A DNA stretch of 62,898 nt, filler included, from Globobulimina sp. (Eukaryota), in the NCBI GenBank assembly GCA_003354225.1. It is 36 parts of 36 records of this genome, joined end to end, with 100 filler letters (N's around TTAATTAATTAA, not from the genome) between each part and the next. Parts side by side here need not be neighbours in the genome. Positions count along the whole stretch, not along the records: positions 35,011 to 36,660 come from PIVH01013622.1; 35 more parts are not named here. One strand, 5' to 3'. Below, one piece after another: positions 10,367 to 61,149 of this stretch. Both the position numbers and the translations under genes were made by a program. The notes beneath the pieces were generated by a model. That model saw nothing but the letters and a program-made list of their open reading frames with translations. It was not told the DNA's origin and made no database searches. Position 1 is the first letter of the stretch; every line of letters starts with the position of its first letter.

Positions 10367-10508
10367 AATTTATATTTTCTTGTTACTTAATCACACGAAT
10401 CTGTGCNNNNNNNNNNNNNNNNNNNNNNNNNNNNNNNNNNNNNNNNNNNNTTAATTAATTAANNNNNNNNNNNNNNNNNNNNNNNNNNNNNNNNNNNNNN
10501 NNNNNNTA

Positions 10509-10679
10509 GTTGAGACTATTTTAAATTATGGCAACGAAAAAAGTGTAAAAAAACTATTCGAACTAATAGGAATAAAAAAAGTAGCAGAAATATTCTATCT
10601 TCAGACATCACGTCAGAGGGTAAATTATCACCCACGAACAGTTAATTATTTTACTCAGTATTTTAAACGGCATGCATAA
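10509..10679 (+). CDS. Bacterial small protein, putative antitoxin partner of the downstream AbiEii toxin (DUF6922-like), 5'-truncated
   Basis: VETILNYGNEKSVKKLFELIG...NYFTQYFKRHA; its 3' end overlaps the next ORF by 8 nt (ATGCATAA). Confidence 0.6.
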   Translation, partial: VETILNYGNEKSVKKLFELIGIKKVAEIFYLQTSRQRVNYHPRTVNYFTQYFKRHA

Positions 10680-11289
10680 AAACATACTTACAGATAAACA
10701 GATTGCTCTTTTACCTGTGATCCAGAAATTTTCAAAAGAATACTATCTGGCCGGCGGCACAGCAATTGCTTTGTATATAGGGCATCGGAGATCTATCGAT
10801 TTCGATTTATTTTCAAGTAGTGCTATTAAACGCAAACGTATAAAAACAATTATAGATAAGAGTGGATTCCCTGTTTCTGAAATAATATATGAAGCTTATG
10901 ATCAACTCCATCTAATTGTAAATGACGTCAAACTGACATTTTTTAATTTCCCATACAATGTTAAAAGCGAAAATGATTTTGATGGATTTATAAAACTCCC
11001 ATCTTTAATTGATTTAGCAGCAATGAAAGCTCACGCTTTAGGCGGCCGGGCGAAATGGAAAGATTATGTTGATTTATATTATCTATTAAAGGACCACTTT
11101 AATATAGATGAAATATCATCTAAAGCAAAAATTATCTTTGGAAATTATTTTAATGAAAAATTGTTTCGAGAACAATTGGCATACTTTAAAGACATTGATT
11201 ATCGTGAGTCAATTGAATTTATTATCGATGAAATAGAAGAAGATAAAATCAAAGAATATTTGACTGAAATTTCATTATCCCCCTTTTAG
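10672..11289 (+). CDS. AbiEii-family nucleotidyltransferase toxin (type IV TA), bacterial
   Basis: YLAGGTAIAL..GHRRSIDFDLF and AAMKAHAL..R...KDYVDLY motifs; intronless. Confidence 0.85.
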   Translation: MHKNILTDKQIALLPVIQKFSKEYYLAGGTAIALYIGHRRSIDFDLFSSSAIKRKRIKTIIDKSGFPVSEIIYEAYDQLHLIVNDVKLTFFNFPYNVKSENDFDGFIKLPSLIDLAAMKAHALGGRAKWKDYVDLYYLLKDHFNIDEISSKAKIIFGNYFNEKLFREQLAYFKDIDYRESIEFIIDEIEEDKIKEYLTEISLSPF

Positions 11290-11325
11290 AACAGCCATAT
11301 ATTGATCTAAAGAATTATATAACCT

Positions 11326-12153
11326 ATGACCAGATACGCGTTATTTACACATATACTTTTTGCTAATGCTTTGTTTGTATTGGCTTGCGCTATATGCTGG
11401 TTACTGATAAAGCGTGTACGAATAATGGATATCCCCAATATCCGATCTTCTCATGACACTCCTATTCCAAAATGCGGTGGTATCGTAATTGTTGCTACTT
11501 TTCTGATAGGTGTTATGGCGATATATTTTTTTGGTGATGTAACAATGATTAACAAGAAGTATTTTTGGGGATTTGTCCTTTCTTCATTAATGATAGCAGG
11601 ATTTTCCTTTTATGATGATATTTCTGATAAACCATTCATATTCAAATTATTATGCCAAATAGTTGCTGTATTAATTGTTATGAAATTTGGCATTGTAATA
11701 ACTGAATTTTCTCTTCCATGGTTTGGAAAAGTTCAATTAGGCATATGGGGATATATCCTAACATTTTTGTGGATTATCGGTTTAACCAATGCATATAATT
11801 TTATGGATGGATTAAACGGTATGGCAGCAGGACCTGCCGTGATTACCGCTCTTTTTTTATGTATTTTGAGCTTTTATCAGGGAAGTACTTTTGTTTATAT
11901 TATCTGTTATACGATAATATCAGGTGCATTAGGATTTATGGTGTTTAATTTCCCTAATGCAAAATTATTTATGGGGGATGTGGGCAGTGCGTTTTTAGGA
12001 TTTGTTTTTGCTAACCTGGCAATTATTGCATCATTATATGATCATTCACATACTTCTTTTTTTGTTATACCTTTGCTGCTGTTTAATTTTATTTATGATA
12101 CCTCCTTTACGTTTATTCGCCGTTTTTTACGAAAGGAAAATGTCTTTTTTTAA
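11326..12153 (+). CDS. Glycosyltransferase family 4 (WecA/MraY-like polyprenyl-phosphate GlcNAc-1-P transferase), bacterial, 3'-truncated near the contig end
   Basis: RSSH..P.P..GG, YDD, NAYNFMDGLNG and FNFP.AKLFMGDVGS motifs; multiple transmembrane helices. Confidence 0.9.
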   Translation: MTRYALFTHILFANALFVLACAICWLLIKRVRIMDIPNIRSSHDTPIPKCGGIVIVATFLIGVMAIYFFGDVTMINKKYFWGFVLSSLMIAGFSFYDDISDKPFIFKLLCQIVAVLIVMKFGIVITEFSLPWFGKVQLGIWGYILTFLWIIGLTNAYNFMDGLNGMAAGPAVITALFLCILSFYQGSTFVYIICYTIISGALGFMVFNFPNAKLFMGDVGSAFLGFVFANLAIIASLYDHSHTSFFVIPLLLFNFIYDTSFTFIRRFLRKENVFF

Positions 12154-12257
12154 AAAANNNNNNNNNNNNNNNNNNNNNNNNNNNNNNNNNNNNNNNNNNN
12201 NTTAATTAATTAANNNNNNNNNNNNNNNNNNNNNNNNNNNNNNNNNNNNNNNNNNNN

Positions 12258-13845: not shown

Positions 13846-13861
13846 GCTGCTATAGCTCAGC

Positions 13862-13895
<34 letters not shown>

Positions 13896-13908
13896 GGTTC
13901 GATCCCGG
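13846..13908 (+). tRNA. tRNA-Phe(GAA), truncated at the contig end
   Basis: D-arm TAGCTCAGCTGGGAGAGC, anticodon arm TCAGA-CTGAAGA-TCTGA (GAA at 13879-13881), T-loop GGTTCGATCCC. Confidence 0.92.
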
Positions 13909-14019
13909 NNNNNNNNNNNNNNNNNNNNNNNNNNNNNNNNNNNNNNNNNNNNTTAATTAATTAANNNNNNNNNNNNNNNNNNNNNNNNNNNNNNNNNNNN
14001 NNNNNNNNGTGAGAAAAAA

Positions 14020-17410: not shown

Positions 17411-17533
17411 NNNNNNNNNNNNNNNNNNNNNNNNNNNNNNNNNNNNNNNNNNNNTTAATTAATTAANNNNNNNNNNNNNNNNNNNNNNNNNNNNNNNNNN
17501 NNNNNNNNNNTCGCGACCAAAACAAGTTTCTCT

Positions 17534-19160
17534 GTGTACAATTATTTCAATCACTTTATGCATTTCATCACAACAGAATGCGTTTCGGGGTATATGATAT
17601 GTACCGAAAAGCATGAACATACGCGGAAATTGTACAGATTCATTGAGAGATATCAGCATCGAATACGGAAATTGTATAAATACATCAAAATAATAATGGA
17701 TAAATCACTACGTTGGGTCACATTACGAATGCCACAGCATCGGTATCATCCCATTAAAGCTTTCATTGTAGGCAAATTTCCGAAACATATTAGGATTAGA
17801 TTCAAGAAAATACCTTACAATAAAGCGACTATTGAGCAGACAGTTTACAAACAGCTCCATGCTTTTAACAAGAGCCCATCGAAAATCTTAACTCTGTTTG
17901 ACTTCATAGTAAAAAACAATTATGTGGAGAACGACCCTATTTTGCAGCAATCCACTGCCAACAACAAGTACCATATAAAATGGTTCGTCCCGACAGATAA
18001 AAAAGTCCGTGAGATACGTAACCATTGGCAGGGCGTACACAATGATCTGAACATAAACATCCACTCTTTGCACAGAGATAACTGGATCAACAACCAGAAA
18101 AATAATGCGATTGTTTCCCTCAGACAGATATATAAACACGCAATAAACAGATATCACACAAATAATAACACACTCCGAGAATACAAAAATTATATGGTCA
18201 GCAAGGTGATACATGATTATGTCACCAATGAGCGGCACTCCAACACCGATATTCCAGAAATAATCCTTAAATATCCCTTCATGCAAATGTATGCGCCCAA
18301 TGTAGCACCAATAACATCCACTCAAATCCGAATAAAAAACCTAAAAATTGGTTTCCTAAACATCAGCGGCAACGCAAAAACAAAAATAAACCAAATGCAT
18401 CCATATATGCAACAGCTTGTAATGCACCACAAACTGGATATAATCCTCTTAATTGATACCAGAATCATCCATCGCCCCAATTGGAAACTTCCAGGCTATA
18501 AACTATTGATCCACAAAGCGCCCAATTCTACGAACAATCCACGCAATGTAGGAGGTATTCTAATTTACCATAAATATAATCTACGTAATAAACTGCAGTT
18601 ACTTCATAAAACGAGAGGGCATAACACTGCTTGGATTTCAGTCCAAATCCCAAATCAATCCAAACCTTCCTACATTGCCATTAATTATGCCCGGCCATTC
18701 AAGACAAAGCTCGCCGATCGCAGCTATAACTTCTACCAATCATTGACATCTGATATTAACAAATATAAGCAATGTTGCCACTCAATGTATGTCATTGGCG
18801 ATTTCAACGCCAGAATGGGAGCATTGACCATGGATCATAACACAAACGGGCATTATCGATATATGAAGCAAATGTTGGACGACACCGATCTAAAAATAGC
18901 CAATCCGCAATTTGCGCCCAAATTCCTGACGTGTCTAGCCAAGGGAACACAGAATACCGGTGGTTCTATAATAGACTATGTGATAACAGATAAACTTGAA
19001 ACCATACAGACAATGAACGTTGACACGCATCCGATATTTATGGATCACCGGCCAGTTGTTTTCACACTTAACAACATAAAATGTGAAACAAATAATAATG
19101 ATAAACATATGGTGCTACGTACAAATAAACCCAATGATGAACTGACTAAAATCCATGAAA
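17534..19160 (+). mobile_element. Non-LTR retrotransposon ORF with APE-type endonuclease, partial
   Basis: KIGFLNISG, DII.L.DT, GG.LIY, INYARP, IGDFNAR, SIIDYV and DHRPV; intronless and A-rich sense strand. Confidence 0.8.
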
Positions 19161-35010: not shown

Positions 35011-35649
35011 TATTTCTCCATACTCCCGACCAATCAATACAAACAAGTTACTGTCTTCAATTGGATGTCTCAACAAGTCACCATTCGTTTTTTTGTATTC
35101 GTCCATTATAATTGGTGCTAAAACAAACAAAGAAATTATTTCTGTACTTTCATACAGAAATGTTTACCTAAATCCAGAAAGTAAATAATAGATTGTCGTC
35201 CCCAAATGACACAACCTTCCCGAGTAGGTCTGAGACCAGTTTCAATTTCTGCATCTGGTAAATATACTCTGAAAAAGTGTGATGAAATCAAAAGAAATAA
35301 AGAAAAACTGTTAATTTTACCTAATATGAAGTCCAATTTCCTGACGATAAAAACCAAGATATCCATAATATCCTTCACCAAGATCAAAATATCTGCCAGT
35401 TGGTGTACTTTCATGTTTCTCAAAACAACTTCCAGGTTTGCCTGTTTTCTTGGATGTTTTCGATAATGGTTGATACTTTGTGGAATAATCACCAGTTGAT
35501 GCACTCCTTTTGTTACCATACTGCCTATCTCGATGCACATTGTTGTAGTTGTTTTGTTGTGTAGGTGCTGGTGGTGGAGCAAAAACTCTCAAAGCAGATC
35601 TGGTCCTATATCCACCAGCCGCTTTTGTTTTCGATCTGGTATTGTACAT
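35011..35649 (-). CDS. PC4-like ssDNA-binding protein (probably tandem PC4 domains), 3 exons (35649-35321, 35268-35168, 35117 to contig end)
   Basis: Spliced product reads FDLGEGYYGYLGFYRQEIGLHIRVYLPDAEIETGLRPTREGCVIW; GT-AG introns 35269-35320 (52 nt) and 35118-35167 (50 nt) keep the frame. Confidence 0.7.
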
Positions 35650-35724
35650 GCTAAAATATTTTTATTTAAAAATCGATACATATATACAATACATATAACA
35701 ATAGCCACTGAAGCAGAAAACACA

Positions 35725-35905
35725 GCGCGCGCCTATAGGCGCGCGCGATATCAAAACAAGATAAGGCCGCTTCAGCGGCCTATTTTATTTTTCAGCCACA
35801 TATGTGGCTGAAAAATGCGCGCGCGATCGAAAGAAAAGTTTAAAGTTCCGACTCACATCCCGCGCCCCATGGCGCGGCGGCTACAGGCCGCCGCGCCGGG
35901 GCGCG
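35725..35905. promoter_or_regulatory. Cluster of four palindromes/hairpins between the polB and PC4-like genes
   Basis: 22-bp perfect palindrome 35725-35746; 7-8 bp hairpin 35764-35781; 30-bp perfect palindrome 35787-35816; 19-bp all-GC stem 35861-35905. Function unknown. Confidence 0.6.
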
Positions 35906-35950
35906 TGAAGGGTCAGAAGAACACAATATGTACATGGCTATTATATGGAT

Positions 35951-36660
35951 CTATTCTCCTCCTCCTACACACCAACCCCATGGAAATAAACGATAATTAA
36001 AACGATCAAAATCACAATATACAAATTGTCTCTTAGTCATAGAATATTGAACTTTCTTAAGTGAAGTTTCTAAGTTCTGCAATATTCCTCCTTCTAAGAT
36101 ATTTCTACGAATTTTAGAATCCCTAAGCTTAAGATGCATGGGCTGATTTGGCAATTTGTGTACAGCTGTTAATAAAAGTTGTTTCATTTTGTCAAAACAA
36201 AGTTCGTCTTTGCCATTTTGTGTCAGTCCTTTGAATTTGATTTCCACTGAACCCGAATTCGTTTCGTAGCAGTAGGATTTGTTTCCTGCAAACAAAATTT
36301 TAAATGACTTCACACTATACTCTAAAAAATTTTTTTTACCAAGAACGACCAGCTTTGTAATAAAATCGCCATCATTGAGTTCATTTTTGAGATAACCAAG
36401 GTGATCAGAAGTGGCTACAGGTATGACATCTTTGTAGTGAAAAATAATTGAATCCTACAATTATATTATTGATCATGTTATTACAACGACTATACTAACT
36501 TACAGTATCCAAGTAAGCAACAGAAAATTCAATTGGTTCTATGACTTTCAATAACTTAAGGCGGGCCAATGCAGTTGTCCAACTTGAAATAACAACATTG
36601 GATGTACTGTGCACCACATCGATTAATTCTAAATCCTTTTGGGTTTGCACGAGTAATACA
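35951..36660 (-). mobile_element. C-terminal part of a protein-primed family B DNA polymerase (Polinton/Maverick-like) with two introns
   Basis: SNVVISSWTTALARLKL, AYLDT|DSIIF, LGYLKNEL, G|NKSYCY, KFKGLT, KR and PWGW; introns 36455-36503 (49 nt) and 36286-36339 (54 nt). Confidence 0.85.
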
Positions 36661-39906: not shown

Positions 39907-40569
39907 TATATGTTTGATCCATATTTGTATAACAAAATAGTAACACATAACTTCCAATATTTTAGATCGAGTATGGGGTGAAACGTGCCTTGCCATTGTT
40001 GTAGTTGTCATATCATCGTATCATCAAATTATCTATGTCGGACTATTGATGTTAAAGAATTATTATGTTGGCCAAATGAAGGATGATATGATTGGGAGAT
40101 CAAATAAATTAAAATATGATCAACATTGAGAAACATACGTACTTGAAACAGAATTCAGGANNNNNNNNNNNNNNNNNNNNNNNNNNNNNNNNNNNNNNNN
40201 NNNNTTAATTAATTAANNNNNNNNNNNNNNNNNNNNNNNNNNNNNNNNNNNNNNNNNNNNTTTGCGTTGTTTATCTCTGTCCTTTTGTGGGGCTTTCGAG
40301 TTACGCGATTTATTATTAATAGCGGTGATGCTATTTATGTTTTGATTACGATTATGATTATTTGCTTTAGTGGCTGCTGAATATGAGCGATTTGAGTTTA
40401 TATTGGATTGTGCCATTTTGAGTATATGGTATATTTGATTGCGAATCAAAAGTATATTGATATATTGAAAGATGTGGAGACAAGAGCGATCAATTCACTT
40501 CTCTTGTATGTCTTTGCTAATTAGTGACTATGAGTTGTCAACTTGTGAGAATTAATATGGCGAAGCCAT

Positions 40570-40608
40570 GTTTAGAAGTTTAGAAGTTTAGTGTTTAGAA
40601 GTTTAGAG
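40570..40608. repeat. Short tandem array of GTTTAGAA-like 8-mers at the PLE truncation point
   Basis: gtttagaa gtttagaa gtttagt gtttagaa gtttagag. Confidence 0.85.
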
Positions 40609-41179
40609 GCCGAGCGGCTAATTTTGGCGTATTATCATCATTTAATTTATGCGCCTTAGATATAGGTTGATGTACAGGCAATTTATAAAAGAATGATTTG
40701 ATTTTATTAATGATACGTCGGCGATTTATAAATAAATGTGCGAAATTCGTGTTTTTTAATATAATGTTTATCAATTTATGAATATGAACTAATAATTCAT
40801 CAGAAATCCAGGTTGTTTCTTGTTCATTGTTTGATAAAACAGTGTAAAATTTGCATTTATTTATAGTATCAATATTGAGTTTATCCCAATCACTTTTTAT
40901 ATTAATGATAGGGCCCAGATTCTTGTCCGAATTTCCAATGTATAAATCTGGGAATATGTTATTGATATTGTTTAATATTTGAATATCTTTCATAGTCGCT
41001 GTTGGTTTGTTGACTTTGCGTAAAGTTTTAAAATGTTTGAGTTGTTTAAATTTGACAAAGTCTAAAAACTTTTGGTATTTATCATTTAGTTCCATGGTCT
41101 CGTTGAGTGTGCATTTATTGTTAACTAAATGTTTCATATGTTGTTTATTAAATGATTTTACAATTTGTTTATATGCCAT
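40595..41179 (-). mobile_element. Penelope-like retroelement RT N-terminal region, truncated
   Basis: I.NSDKNLG.I motif and P....SKAHK......ARPL block that precede the RT core in PLEs. Confidence 0.6.
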
Positions 41180-41201
41180 TTTTTGTATTTTGATATATTT
41201 A

Positions 41202-41735
41202 TTATTGTTTATCTTTTGTAGATTTGTTGAGAATTTTATGTAACGGCGGACATAAATTATTGATTTTTGTATTGGATCGATTGTGGTAATTGGTGGCGTC
41301 GAAATCTTTTATGTTTGAGATGATATTAATTATTATATTGAAACAAAGATTAATTATTTTTATGGTCATATCAAAATGACAAATAATATGACCATTATTA
41401 GTATTTTTGTTGTTGTTTATTATTTTGTACGTGTTTGGAGTATTTGTTGTACTTTCCATTTGTTTTAATTCAGCCATTTTTATTTCAATAGCTAGGTCCT
41501 TCGACATAAGCTGTTGTCTAAATTGATCCATTTGTAATTTCATGTCGTAATTATTTCTCTGTAATTGATCAATTTGTTGCTTTAGTTCTAATTTTTCGTT
41601 TCCATTATCACGCTCTTTCTCATTTATTTTCATTTGCTGCAATTTATATTGATCAATTAATTGAATATTTTCTTTTTTTAGTACTTCTTTTTCGTTTCTT
41701 TCTTGTTGCCATTGTTTTTTATAATATATACTCAC
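41202..41735 (-). CDS. Coiled-coil ORF upstream of the PLE RT fragment
   Basis: Heptad Q/K/E-rich stretch on the same strand as the RT fragment. Confidence 0.4.
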   Translation of the reverse strand: MSIYYKKQWQQERNEKEVLKKENIQLIDQYKLQQMKINEKERDNGNEKLELKQQIDQLQRNNYDMKLQMDQFRQQLMSKDLAIEIKMAELKQMESTTNTPNTYKIINNNKNTNNGHIICHFDMTIKIINLCFNIIINIISNIKDFDATNYHNRSNTKINNLCPPLHKILNKSTKDKQ

Positions 41736-42104
41736 ATCATATTGCTCAGATATTTCATTATTTGCTTCATCGATGAGAGTTTCATTAATTGTTTCATTTA
41801 TTATTGATTTGTCATCGCTTTTATCGAATTCTTTCGAATCATTGCTTTTATTTCTGAACCCATAATCGAATAATTTATTATTATCATTTATTTGATATTT
41901 TTGAGAGAAANNNNNNNNNNNNNNNNNNNNNNNNNNNNNNNNNNNNNNNNNNNNTTAATTAATTAANNNNNNNNNNNNNNNNNNNNNNNNNNNNNNNNNN
42001 NNNNNNNNNNCGGTAATTAGCGGGGAATGATATGTAGCTGCTATGATAATTGATTTCGTCACGTTTTCGTTCATTTAGATAATTGATTTCGTCACGAATG
42101 ATAA

Positions 42105-43759: not shown

Positions 43760-45037
43760 CGCAAACAGATCGCCAAAGCAAAAGTATTCGTAAAATTAAA
43801 ATCCGCGCCAATGCCAGCTCCAAAAGGCGTGATCATCAGCAATGATTTGGACATTATCCCGACGCGCAAAATGGAGACCGACGCGGATATCGAATTGAGA
43901 CTAAAATTAGAGAAAATATTAAACGATTCACGCAACGAACAATTAGAAAACCAACAATGTCCGATTTGTGGCGAATATATCAACATTTTGCACTTATCGC
44001 AACATATTCGGATCGAGCTATTGGACCCAAAATGGAAGGAACAAAAAGAATCATTGAAACTAAAACTATCGCAAACCACATTAGCTTCCAATCAGCAGAT
44101 TTCTGAGAATTTAATCAAATTCAACCAAGCACAGAACATAGACGCCAACGACAACAACAACCCGACTTTGGATGGCGTGCAGCCATGGAATGGCCATCAA
44201 GACTCATTGGCGCAGCAGAAACAGTTGAAAGCGGCGCAGGAAGAGCTGAAAAAACAGGAGAAATTATTAAAAGAGCAAGCGAAGGAAAAGGAGAGGGCCT
44301 CAAACGAAGCAAACAACAAACCCCCTCCACCGCAGCCACACTATCCTCCGATGCCAATTCCAATGCAGCCCCGACACACTGGTCACAGTCACAGCCAACA
44401 GAGCTATCTGAACCCAATGATGAATGCGCACTTTGCGCGGCCTCCCCATCCGCCGCCGCACCCGCACGCTCATATTATGCTGCCACCGCACCATCCATAC
44501 CACCATCACAGACCGCATGTGCCTCCCTTTGTGCATATGGGACAGCCTCCCTTTCCTCCACCGCCCGCAATGCGGCACCCACAGCAACCGCAGCACCCAC
44601 AGCCATCGCAGCCGCAGCAGGCAATGATGCAGCAGCCGGCGGCGAAGAAGATGAAATTGAATAATAATAAAGTGGTCGGAGTTGGCGGTGGGAATAAGAT
44701 GGAAGGATTGATTGAGGAAAACGAGTTTATTCAACAAAATGGCGGTGTTGGGAATAGTGTGAAAATCCGGATAAAAGTACCCAAGGATGAGAAGAAGAAA
44801 CAGTTTAATTTCAATGGACAGACTTTGACGTTTACGATGCAATTAAAGCAGAATGTAAATGAATTGAAGCAGCGGATACACAGTGTGTTGAGTATACCGA
44901 CAAACAAACAGAAATTGAGGATACAAACCAATGGCATTTGGGTCAAGGATGCCAACTCTTTGGCGTTTTATAATATTAACTCTTCGTCGATGTTGGAGTT
45001 GGCCACAAGAACCAGAGGCGGTAAAAAAAATAAATAA
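43760..45037 (+). CDS. SF3A1: Splicing factor 3A subunit 1 (Prp21), C-terminal part
   Basis: CPICGE.I....L..HIRIELLDPKWKEQK, Pro-rich linker, C-terminal ubiquitin-like domain ending SLAFYN...RTRGGKK. Confidence 0.9.
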   Translation, partial: RKQIAKAKVFVKLKSAPMPAPKGVIISNDLDIIPTRKMETDADIELRLKLEKILNDSRNEQLENQQCPICGEYINILHLSQHIRIELLDPKWKEQKESLKLKLSQTTLASNQQISENLIKFNQAQNIDANDNNNPTLDGVQPWNGHQDSLAQQKQLKAAQEELKKQEKLLKEQAKEKERASNEANNKPPPPQPHYPPMPIPMQPRHTGHSHSQQSYLNPMMNAHFARPPHPPPHPHAHIMLPPHHPYHHHRPHVPPFVHMGQPPFPPPPAMRHPQQPQHPQPSQPQQAMMQQPAAKKMKLNNNKVVGVGGGNKMEGLIEENEFIQQNGGVGNSVKIRIKVPKDEKKKQFNFNGQTLTFTMQLKQNVNELKQRIHSVLSIPTNKQKLRIQTNGIWVKDANSLAFYNINSSSMLELATRTRGGKKNK

Positions 45038-59500: not shown

Positions 59501-60198
59501 GATAACCATTCTTCACCGGCTTTAATTTTTTTCTTATCCAAATCAAATTGTTCAATAAACGTGTTGAATATGACAGTACAATTTTCAGTACATTTGTTAA
59601 AATATGAATTATATCCATCAAGTTCCACGGGGTAAGCGATGACTTTTTGACCCTGAAAACATTGCTTTTCCCCGGTTTTTATAGTGACCCCCTTTGGCGA
59701 AAATCCAAATTCATCAATTTCCTTATTGTTCTTTATCTGCCACATTTTCTTGGAGTATGATTTAATATATTTTTCATAAAGGCGTTCACCGACTGAATTG
59801 ATCCAGTATTCCTCAAAATTGCCGGCTTTTTTATCTTTCGGCCTTTGCTCAAGCTCCCTGCATATTAACTCCTTATCGGGCATCTGCTCTATTTCGTCGG
59901 CGTGAATCGGATATGTATAAAAACAGTGATCCTGATTAACATATGTCAGCGTATGGTGCTTTAACTCCCTCAGCGTAAGAAATCGACTAAAAAAATCCCA
60001 GACAAACATTTCATCCGTATTAATAAGCAAATGGTGTGGACCGTATGTAAAGGGATGACCATGATCAAAATACGTTCGGCATCCGCCGCCCAGACCGTCA
60101 CTTCCTTCAACCAGTGTCACATCAAATCCTTTTTCATTCAACATATATGCAATGGTGCACCCGGCAAAACCGCCCCCAATAACAATTGCAGACTTCAT
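59501..60198 (-). CDS. UDP-galactopyranose mutase-like FAD enzyme, bacterial, 3'-truncated
   Basis: IVIGGGFAG, LGGGC, YGPH, YPIH, VG..LYE.YI..YS.K.W and P...GY; intronless. Confidence 0.8.
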
Positions 60199-60255
60199 AA
60201 ATTCACTTCCTTAGTGATAATAAGTTATATTCCATGATGGAATGATTCTGTTGCA

Positions 60256-61149
60256 TCATTCCGTAAGTGTTACAATGGTGCCTCTAAAATTATTCTTCCG
60301 TAATCTCTGCGTAATCGCATGTTGATGCAAAAAAGCCGTTATTACCACCGTTTGATTATCCGTTACATCAGCATTTCTCGGATTTACAACCGGAACAACC
60401 TGATCTTTGCTATACAAAAAAAGATTCTCAAAGTGCTCTGTATCATCCAATGCGATTTTTATTCGTGGGTTCTCACCCAGAACGCTTAACAATGATACTG
60501 CATGCCATGCAGCGCCATAAAAAAGGACAGGCTCATCTTCTTTCAATAGTTTATGTTTAATGTTATGAAGATGTGCCGATAAACGGTTCCCGAGATTTTT
60601 ATCGCCGCATGGTCTTATTTTCTCTCTATGAATCCGTGTGCCGGAACGTAATATGAACCCCATATCATGTCCCCCCTTGATATCCAGTTCTCCCGCACTT
60701 TCAAGACCGGCCTTTTCAATAAGCTCAATTAAATTACGCCGATAAAAATAGTGCACATGTGCGTTATGGAAATCAATAAAGGCATTATGGTTTTCGATAT
60801 AGGACGCATTGGGTACTTCGATATACAGACACCCCTTTGGATTCAAAGCCTTTTTCATGTCCATAAGTAGCTCAAGGGGGTCTGAGACATGTTCGAGGAC
60901 CTGACGGCAGATAACTAAATCCGCTTTTTGACGGATGCGCCTCACAGAAAAGCCCTCATTAACCAGTGTTATATTGGGTTCCGGCACCATTTCCGGAAGG
61001 AGCGCAGGATTTGGCTCAAATACCTGTACCGATCGTGCGTATTGCGCCAAAGCTCTGGCAAAGTAACCACTCCCTGCCCCGACTTCAATTACATCCTTAT
61101 CAGCAATACGGTCCAATCCGATCCATTCGAGTATGCTTCCTAAGAACTG
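60256..61149 (-). CDS. Class I SAM methyltransferase (sugar C-methyltransferase-like), bacterial, 5'-truncated
   Basis: VIEVGAGSG, DLVICRQVLEHV.DP, L.P.G.LYIEVPN, H.HYF and C-terminal FYGA. Confidence 0.85.
   Translation of the reverse strand, partial: QFLGSILEWIGLDRIADKDVIEVGAGSGYFARALAQYARSVQVFEPNPALLPEMVPEPNITLVNEGFSVRRIRQKADLVICRQVLEHVSDPLELLMDMKKALNPKGCLYIEVPNASYIENHNAFIDFHNAHVHYFYRRNLIELIEKAGLESAGELDIKGGHDMGFILRSGTRIHREKIRPCGDKNLGNRLSAHLHNIKHKLLKEDEPVLFYGAAWHAVSLLSVLGENPRIKIALDDTEHFENLFLYSKDQVVPVVNPRNADVTDNQTVVITAFLHQHAITQRLRKNNFRGTIVTLTE

Follow-up and report, generated by a model that had tools for sequence, protein, structure and literature searches.

We analyzed a stretch of 62,898 nt (the window) from the genome assembly of Globobulimina sp. 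(GCA_003354225.1). The window consists of 36 unrelated contigs of 1649-1651 bp, sorted by length and joined by N...TTAATTAATTAA...N spacers, with G+C contents (GC) of 0.28-0.44. One contig, at 35011-36660 (PIVH01013622.1; 1650 bp, GC 0.37), carries the entire finding, and the rest of the window is not linked to it. On its minus strand, this contig contains the final 201 codons of a gene for what we identify as a protein-primed, Polinton-type DNA polymerase of family B (pPolB). The coding sequence is interrupted by two segments that are strongly supported as introns, and the first of these lies within YxDTDS, or motif C, of the polymerase (Table 1). The first ~1000 codons of the gene are off the contig. 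An earlier prediction, made from this DNA sequence by itself (the original prediction), had described the same arrangement; we re-read the minus strand, and its coordinates and motifs were all correct. Without splicing, the longest open reading frame (ORF) of the polymerase has 167 amino acids. P-numbers (P0001, P0006, P0017, and so on) refer to homologous proteins that we recovered in protein searches.

Table 1. Features on the contig at 35011-36660 (window coordinates).
Feature	Position	Strand	Description
pPolB exon 1 (partial, open at contig end)	36504-36659	-	52 codons before motif C, ending in AYLDT (first half of YxDTDS); contains TTALARLKL; aligns to residues ~1024-1058 of P0017
Intron 1	36455-36503	-	49 nt, GTAAGT...TTGTAG; separates Thr from Asp in YLDT/DS (phase 0); in-frame stop; length not a multiple of 3
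pPolB exon 2	36340-36454	-	DSIIF...LGYLKNEL...VVLG; the rest of motif C through the Gly that precedes KxY
Intron 2	36286-36339	-	54 nt, GTAAAA...TTGCAG; splits the Gly codon of G-N-K-S-Y in phase 1; contains no stop and keeps the frame; read by the raw ORF as an 18-aa insert
pPolB exon 3	35951-36285	-	110 codons and 2 nt from the split Gly codon; KxY motif (NKSYCY) and the thumb region at the C-terminus; followed by the stop TAG (35953-35951)
Four G+C-rich hairpins or palindromes	35725-35905		Inverted repeats I1, I4, I8, and I14; two of these, of 11+11 and 15+15 nt, are perfect; located in a 300-nt spacer that follows the stop of the polymerase
Predicted downstream gene (co-oriented, open at contig end)	35011-35649	-	ATG at 35649; exons 35649-35321, 35268-35168, and 35117-35011; predicted from reading frames and GT-AG ends only
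Downstream gene, first predicted intron	35320-35269	-	52 nt, GTAAAA...TTTCAG
Downstream gene, second predicted intron	35167-35118	-	50 nt, GTAAAC...TTTTAG

Evidence for two introns in the polymerase gene

If both segments are removed, the remaining sequence encodes a stop-free peptide of 201 residues. At the base composition of the contig, the probability that 201 codons would contain no stop is 3.4e-7. When this peptide was aligned with PF03175 polymerases of ~1200 amino acids, there was no gap across either junction. For example, in the alignment with P0017, AYLDT/DSIIF is opposite LYCDTDSVIY, and VVLG/NKSYCY is opposite VSTGPKSYAY (slashes mark the junctions). The score against P0017 rises step by step as the exons are joined: it is 12.5 bits for exon 1 alone, 30.6 bits for the raw 167-aa ORF, 52.4 bits with intron 2 removed, 62.6 bits with only intron 1 removed, and 83.4 bits for the fully spliced peptide. 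All nine of the targets gave the same order, and on each of them the removal of intron 2 added 15-22 bits.

Using a profile built from 12 polymerases, we also scored every stop-free GT-AG alternative to the proposed introns. The boundaries proposed for intron 1 had the top score (135.4 bits), and the next of the 5 stop-free alternatives had 110.1 bits. For intron 2, the proposed boundaries were again at the top (135.4 bits); the next of 16 alternatives had 129.3 bits, and leaving the segment in place gave 117.4 bits. Both segments have the ends of a GT-AG intron, and removing them restores the frame and the homology. The original prediction had placed a 49-nt intron inside YxDTDS, and the gap-free alignment and the ranking of the GT-AG choices bear this out. 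It had also claimed that removing a 54-nt segment restores the spacing of VVLGNKSYCY, which agrees with the alignment to VSTGPKSYAY and with the gain in bits on each target.

Two sequences bear on whether intron 2 is translated. The first is a marine-metagenome contig of 328 nt, obtained in another study, that differs from 36087-36416 only by lacking 2 nt at position 36329, in a run of A/T within intron 2. If the segment were coding, then this deletion would shift the reading frame. (The depth of this contig is 2.2, and the deletion could be an assembly error in a homopolymer.) Second, P0001 is a 120-aa ORF, from a contig of 656 bp, that is 85% identical to the window over 115 aligned residues, but the residues encoded by the tail of intron 2 match at just 3 of 7 positions, and two of those three are the A-G that is encoded by the AG of the acceptor. 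Judging from these comparisons, intron 2 behaves as non-coding. Taking the splice-site form and the homology together, it is strongly supported that the two segments are spliceosomal-type introns. The placement of intron 1 inside YxDTDS hides the motif.

Identity and conservation of the polymerase

The original prediction identified the gene as a pPolB from a Polinton/Maverick or a polinton-like virus (PLV), and it also predicted that screens of ORFs would miss it. The second point is illustrated by our searches with the unspliced sequence. When we compared the 167-aa ORF to 1.84 billion representative proteins with phmmer, only 9 proteins matched at E ≤ 0.001. One of these, P0002, is a 2517-aa cadherin-like repeat protein from bacteria that matches at 17% identity in 12 stretches; we judged it to be unrelated and excluded it. 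The other matches are short fragments that contain YxDTDS and/or GPKSYAY. A protein search for longer homologs of the 167-aa ORF found none, a search of the ESM Atlas with this ORF returned unnamed clusters, and Pfam drew a blank on the separate ORFs.

The spliced peptide directly matches PF03175 proteins, namely P0006 (87.0 bits), P0017 (83.4 bits), P0014 (82.6 bits), and others, with a full range of 76-87 bits. The original prediction had proposed the DNA_pol_B_2 profile as a check. No match to this profile was obtained in Pfam with the separate ORFs; the assignment is based on the similarity of the spliced peptide to full-length PF03175 proteins. Because the model stops immediately ahead of motif C, only ~30 residues of our fragment could match DNA_pol_B_2. 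This is seen with P0006, one of the short fragments, whose match covers 376-462 of the model's 468 positions with 23.8 bits, slightly below the cutoff of 25.8 bits. In the PHROGs, the exons had weak but collinear matches to phrog_1907 ("DNA polymerase"; E = 0.01 and E = 0.017), and the match for exon 1 was at profile positions 461-496. A tblastn search of a phage collection found no match to the polymerase, and querying IMG/VR with exon 3 gave none either.

The relatives of the best match point to a specific kind of polymerase. P0006 has 371 longer relatives at E ≤ 0.001, and all 120 of the relatives that were listed contain PF03175. Most of these 120 are 1100-1400 amino acids long. The contigs that encode them are either ~5-30 kb in length or eukaryotic and of megabase size, and two of the proteins carry the name of their source, one a coral and the other an oyster. 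We also scanned metagenome contigs with the 12-protein alignment and found 80 related loci. From 14 of the longer loci we took 106 flanking ORFs, which include 8 with Pox_A32, 5 with rve, 4 with Chromo, 2 with Peptidase_C5 (adenain-like), and 1 with a double-jelly-roll (DJR)-like domain. Because genes for a packaging ATPase, an rve integrase, a protease, and a double-jelly-roll protein adjoin them, we consider the relatives to be polymerases of Polintons or PLVs. Among proteins of known structure (PDB), the best match to the profile of the relatives was 1xhx, at motif C (E = 9e-4), and archaeal family-B polymerases matched more weakly. We take 1xhx to be the DNA polymerase of phage phi29 (the PDB table itself says "DNA polymerase"). 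By its strong homology to PF03175 proteins, we identify the gene as a Polinton-type protein-primed family-B polymerase, as had been predicted.

All family-B polymerases have YxDTDS and KxY, and our tree (see below) has no outgroups. In principle, the gene could encode a cellular replicative family-B polymerase, or the polymerase of an organellar or cytoplasmic linear plasmid, instead of a Polinton-type enzyme. We give this idea hardly any credence. All of the significant relatives are PF03175 proteins of the Polinton kind; the profile's best match in the PDB is 1xhx, and no chain among the 27 listed bears the name of a eukaryotic Pol alpha, delta, or zeta; and the GT-AG introns speak against an organellar location.

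The end of the gene is also well conserved at the positions that matter for catalysis. Of the 31 columns that are invariant among 12 reference polymerases, 25 are retained in the spliced peptide. Removing intron 1 restores Y-L-D-T-D-S, which matches the invariant Y1055, D1057, T1058, and D1059, so both of the catalytic-site aspartates are present. Removing intron 2 restores KxY (N-K-S-Y-C-Y), and K1099, Y1101, and Y1103 are retained. We built a tree of 133 C-terminal regions, from which we excluded P0002 as well as P0134-P0136 (matches to host GTPases); these were left out of the alignments too. The sole resolved grouping in the tree is the window with P0001 (Shimodaira-Hasegawa-like approximate likelihood ratio test, or SH-aLRT, of 99). 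P0005 joins these two weakly (SH-aLRT 77, with a long-branch warning), and P0003, P0004, and all of the full-length proteins are distant from the window (path lengths of 2.1-3.3). Overall, the end of the gene looks intact and real, and it probably comes from a functional, intron-bearing, Polinton-type pPolB.

Could the polymerase instead be dead, with the 49-nt and 54-nt segments being intron-like insertions into a decaying pseudogene? The 49-nt segment does break the frame, six of the reference-invariant columns are altered, and the branch is long. But both segments are of the form GTAA...YAG and lie exactly where their removal gives a gap-free alignment, the 201 codons are stop-free across three exons, and the catalytic residues are retained. 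Furthermore, the C-terminal 115 residues are conserved in P0001 and the intron-derived residues are not. A pseudogene seems very improbable to us.

Related loci, other DNA copies, and the surrounding sequence

The original prediction stated that polB is usually a single ORF, and this agrees with our comparison: in 76 of 80 related loci, one continuous tblastn segment covers both junction positions, without interruption. The literature on these elements gives a similar picture. Intact vertebrate Mavericks are described as intronless in PMC8097293, which also relays a statement of "no introns" from Kapitonov and Jurka 2006. Likewise, the PLVs of Tetraselmis (PMC9356565) and virophage-like elements of Cafeteria (PMC8547959) are described as intronless, and for endogenous viruses of protists the lack of introns is an assumption used in gene calling (PMC10120064). 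According to PMC12166617, introner transposons occupy about one quarter of the integrated viral elements in dinoflagellates, which are mostly polinton-like. Going by these sources, introns in Polinton-like elements are seldom recorded, but they do have a precedent.

Two of the relatives may have an intron at the same position as intron 2. P0004 and P0005 contain in-frame inserts (of 19 and 18 residues, respectively) exactly between the Gly and (P/C)KSY, which is the site of intron 2. These proteins are 41% and 32% identical to the window ORF and are encoded on contigs of 1.5 and 7.2 kb. Each insert starts with Gly and ends in a residue with a possible A-ending codon, followed by Gly; judging from the protein letters, this would fit the read-through of a phase-1 GT...AG intron. 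In addition, the ORF of P0001 starts inside the intron 2 site. P0005 has a further insert of 18 residues between DT and DS, where P0004 has none. If this insert is an intron, it would be one base off from intron 1 of the window and it would need a GTY donor, so we treat it as a hint only. We found no relatives of P0004 or P0005 in IMG/VR.

P0001, P0004, and P0005 hint at an intron-bearing lineage. It is possible, and we suggest it tentatively and with some doubt, that there is an old lineage of intron-bearing pPolBs in several marine eukaryotes, and that the intron in the Gly before KxY has been kept across the window, P0001, P0004, and P0005 (32-41% identity). If so, then a lineage of Polinton-like viruses may be obligately expressed via the spliceosome and may carry its introns from host to host, or else a pPolB has been domesticated as a cellular gene. 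A shared intron position, if it is genuine, would also be a marker for tracing the lineage of the element or the domestication event.

We also compared the locus to four sequencing runs, which consist of DNA contigs without joints between exons and are uninformative about expression. The unspliced form is present in DNA from two studies. In one of the runs (X1), a contig is identical to the window over 35998-36634, which spans both introns, unspliced. The contigs from X1 that cover the locus have a low depth of 3.8-6, although contig depth is a poor measure. X1 also contains two short contigs with partial matches: one has a 54-nt match at 36607-36660 with 5 differences, the other has a 54-nt match at 36134-36187 with 8 differences, and both diverge from the window beyond the match. 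These may be paralogous copies of the polymerase and, along with P0001, they suggest a family of diverged copies.

Just beyond the polymerase stop is the cluster of hairpins. Its GC is 0.60-0.64, compared to ~0.33 in the flanking sequence, and its predicted RNA fold has an energy of -130.5 kcal/mol (z = -8.9 relative to shuffled sequences). The window has one other GC island, at 44433-44471. A search of the cluster against Rfam found no family at threshold, one of its palindromes had no exact match in IMG/VR, and the related loci had no similar G+C-rich palindromes after polB. The cluster might represent the end of a transcript, the terminus of an element, or a repeat that has been inserted. 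In many of the related loci (L025, L048, L020, and others), a few hundred bases at most separate the polB stop from the end of the contig. We speculate that the cluster could mark an end of the element, because having polB near contig ends fits with its being the outermost, outward-facing gene of a linear genome.

Beyond the cluster, the predicted downstream gene has introns that share the size and style (GTAA..YAG) of the introns in the polymerase. We did not find a family for this gene in Pfam (with any exon, even at E ≤ 10), the PHROGs, or the ESM Atlas, and tblastn found no match to it in the 80 Polinton-type loci. By eye, this gene bears some resemblance to a PC4-type domain for binding single-stranded DNA, but this was not supported by Pfam (E ≤ 10) or by tblastn, and we rejected it.

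Given these surroundings, we considered whether the locus is from a free, non-integrated DNA virus or linear plasmid that replicates in the nucleus, belongs to the organism or to something in its culture, and is spliced by the host. The compact, co-oriented genes would fit, as would the hairpin cluster in the spacer, which is unlike the rest of the window, and the presence of the same sequence in a marine metagenome from another study. Viral polymerases can be spliced: the mRNA for the adenovirus polymerase is spliced, and the polymerase gene of chlorovirus PBCV-1 has a spliceosomal intron. Nevertheless, we consider a free virus or plasmid to be quite unlikely. The GC and the style of the introns agree with the other contigs and with the neighboring gene, exon 3 is unmatched in IMG/VR, and the depth of the covering contigs in X1 shows no sign of an episome (with the caution about contig depth given above).

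The other 35 contigs contain no further polymerase sequence. They encode ordinary eukaryotic proteins, including one with a PRP21-like splicing-factor domain, and a few proteins that look bacterial. By eye, the ORFs at 10507-12157 and at 59501-61149 look bacterial, which might reflect contamination or gene transfer. AbiEii, family-4 glycosyltransferase, and methyltransferase domains are present somewhere among the ORFs of the window. At 17511-19160 and 40261-41910, again by eye, the ORFs resemble the endonuclease and reverse transcriptase of retrotransposons. The sole match in the window to Rfam at the gathering score is to tRNA, at 13853-13909 (39.6 bits), and it reaches the end of its contig (13908). 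The original prediction proposed a rhizarian host; a protein search with an eEF1A-like GTPase ORF, made to place the host, returned three matches, none of them named. A naive scan of all of the contigs for ORFs and GT-AG pairs was too noisy to give a profile of the host's introns.

Origin of the gene and comparison with known systems

We think it fairly probable that this copy of the polymerase belongs to a complete endogenous element, from a multi-copy family of Polinton-like elements in the AT-rich DNA of a marine eukaryote. We infer that the gene is located in the nucleus, where the host's machinery would transcribe it and the spliceosome would excise the 49-nt and 54-nt introns. The resulting mRNA would encode a polymerase in which motif C of the palm (Y-L-D-T-D-S) and K-x-Y of the thumb are rejoined, and this polymerase would use a protein primer to copy the linear DNA of the element. 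The family of elements would have resided in intron-using nuclear genomes for long enough to gain introns, and the introns would be retained because such elements multiply as DNA.

Several results weigh against an endogenous Polinton-like element, or at least do not favor it. Just ~17% of the polymerase gene is on the contig. The parts that lie past the contig end at 36660 include the exonuclease domain (ExoI-III), motif A (DxxSLYPS), motif B (KxxxNSxYG), and the TPR1 and TPR2 insertions. (The TPR1 and TPR2 insertions, together with a terminal-protein partner, define the protein-primed family-B polymerases.) The 1650-bp contig has no integrase, capsid, ATPase, or protease gene, and no terminal repeat is linked to this copy of the polymerase, on a contig that shows one side of the gene only. 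The original prediction had proposed checking the remaining contigs for integrase, ATPase, protease, and capsid genes; tblastn with the 106 ORFs from Polinton loci found no Polinton genes on the 35 other contigs, which are an unlinked sample of 59 kb and say little. Pfam searches with the separate ORFs found no polymerase family at E ≤ 1 and, in particular, no DNA_pol_B_2. The lineage is very divergent, with at most 51% identity to any relative besides P0001, and the stem that leads to the window and P0001 is very long (1.38 changes per column). The six altered invariant columns are A1031S, L1054A, D1079Y, F1093L, P1098N, and L1119Q. Since the tree lacks outgroups, it does not decide between a placement inside the Polinton pPolBs and one beside them. 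Across the four sequencing runs that we compared, all of the matching contigs carry the unspliced form. Finally, the hint of multiple copies is thin, as it depends on two 54-nt matches.

Some of these points would also fit with a domesticated gene, that is, a pPolB that derives from an element but is now a nuclear gene with vertical inheritance, host introns, and a cellular role. This scenario would explain why there are no element genes nearby and why the gene has two host-style introns and a co-oriented, intron-bearing neighbor 300 nt away. An intron position that is apparently in common with P0004 and P0005, at 32-41% identity, is what one would expect if the gene is old; a change in constraints is suggested by the long branch; and the frame and the catalytic residues are intact. 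We consider domestication to be unlikely, but it has more in its favor than a free virus does. The contig is too short to show the neighbors on the 5' side, and the shared intron positions were inferred from proteins only. Also, the possible diverged copies in the X1 sample and the 85% identical relative elsewhere fit a family of repeats. No domesticated pPolB turned up in the literature on these elements, although no search was aimed at finding one.

If the gene does belong to an endogenous Polinton-like element, as we prefer, then its introns imply nuclear transcription and a long residence in an intron-using genome. There is also a practical consequence. Large surveys of endogenous Polinton-like viruses use prokaryote-style ORF finders, on the premise that there are no introns (PMC10120064, PMC9356565, 10.1101/2025.04.19.649669). 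The gene in the window shows what can be lost under this assumption: a catalytic motif is split, Pfam is blank, and a search of 1.84 billion proteins yields 9. The case is limited by its 1.65 kb of context.

Among polymerases of known structure, the closest is that of phage phi29 (1xhx, 2pyj, and others), which was the best match to the profile of the relatives, at motif C (E = 9e-4). The phi29 polymerase is the prototype for protein-primed replication, but it is a 575-aa phage enzyme without introns, and the similarity covers ~30 residues. The polymerases of adenovirus and of PBCV-1 are viral family-B enzymes whose genes are expressed via splicing in the host nucleus; the adenovirus enzyme is protein-primed and the PBCV-1 enzyme is not. 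Both are from different virus groups than the gene in the window.

The pPolBs of Polintons/Mavericks (polintoviruses and adintoviruses) and of PLVs are much closer. The C-terminal 201 residues are collinear with these and gap-free, and they share YxDTDS, the stretch LGxLxxEL, KxY, and KR..P at C-terminal positions. The gene in the window differs in having two spliceosomal-type introns and in being divergent, on a long branch. Complete Polintons are characterized by a set of morphogenesis genes (for a double-jelly-roll major capsid protein, a penton protein, an A32-like ATPase, and an adenain-like protease), by terminal inverted repeats, and by a target-site duplication. In PMC5499653, Polintons are defined by the presence of a pPolB together with a retrovirus-like rve integrase.

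PMC12166617 describes eupolintoviral proviruses in dinoflagellates that offer another parallel: these are integrated and Polinton-like, some of them have a pPolB, and they contain sequences that form introns. The introns in the dinoflagellates belong to recognizable families of introner transposons, while the introns in the window are 49 and 54 nt and have not been linked to a repeat family. Also, intron 1 of the window lies inside motif C and intron 2 is apparently common to distant homologs. The introner-bearing proviruses of dinoflagellates imply that such elements can gain introns while they reside in intron-rich nuclear genomes.

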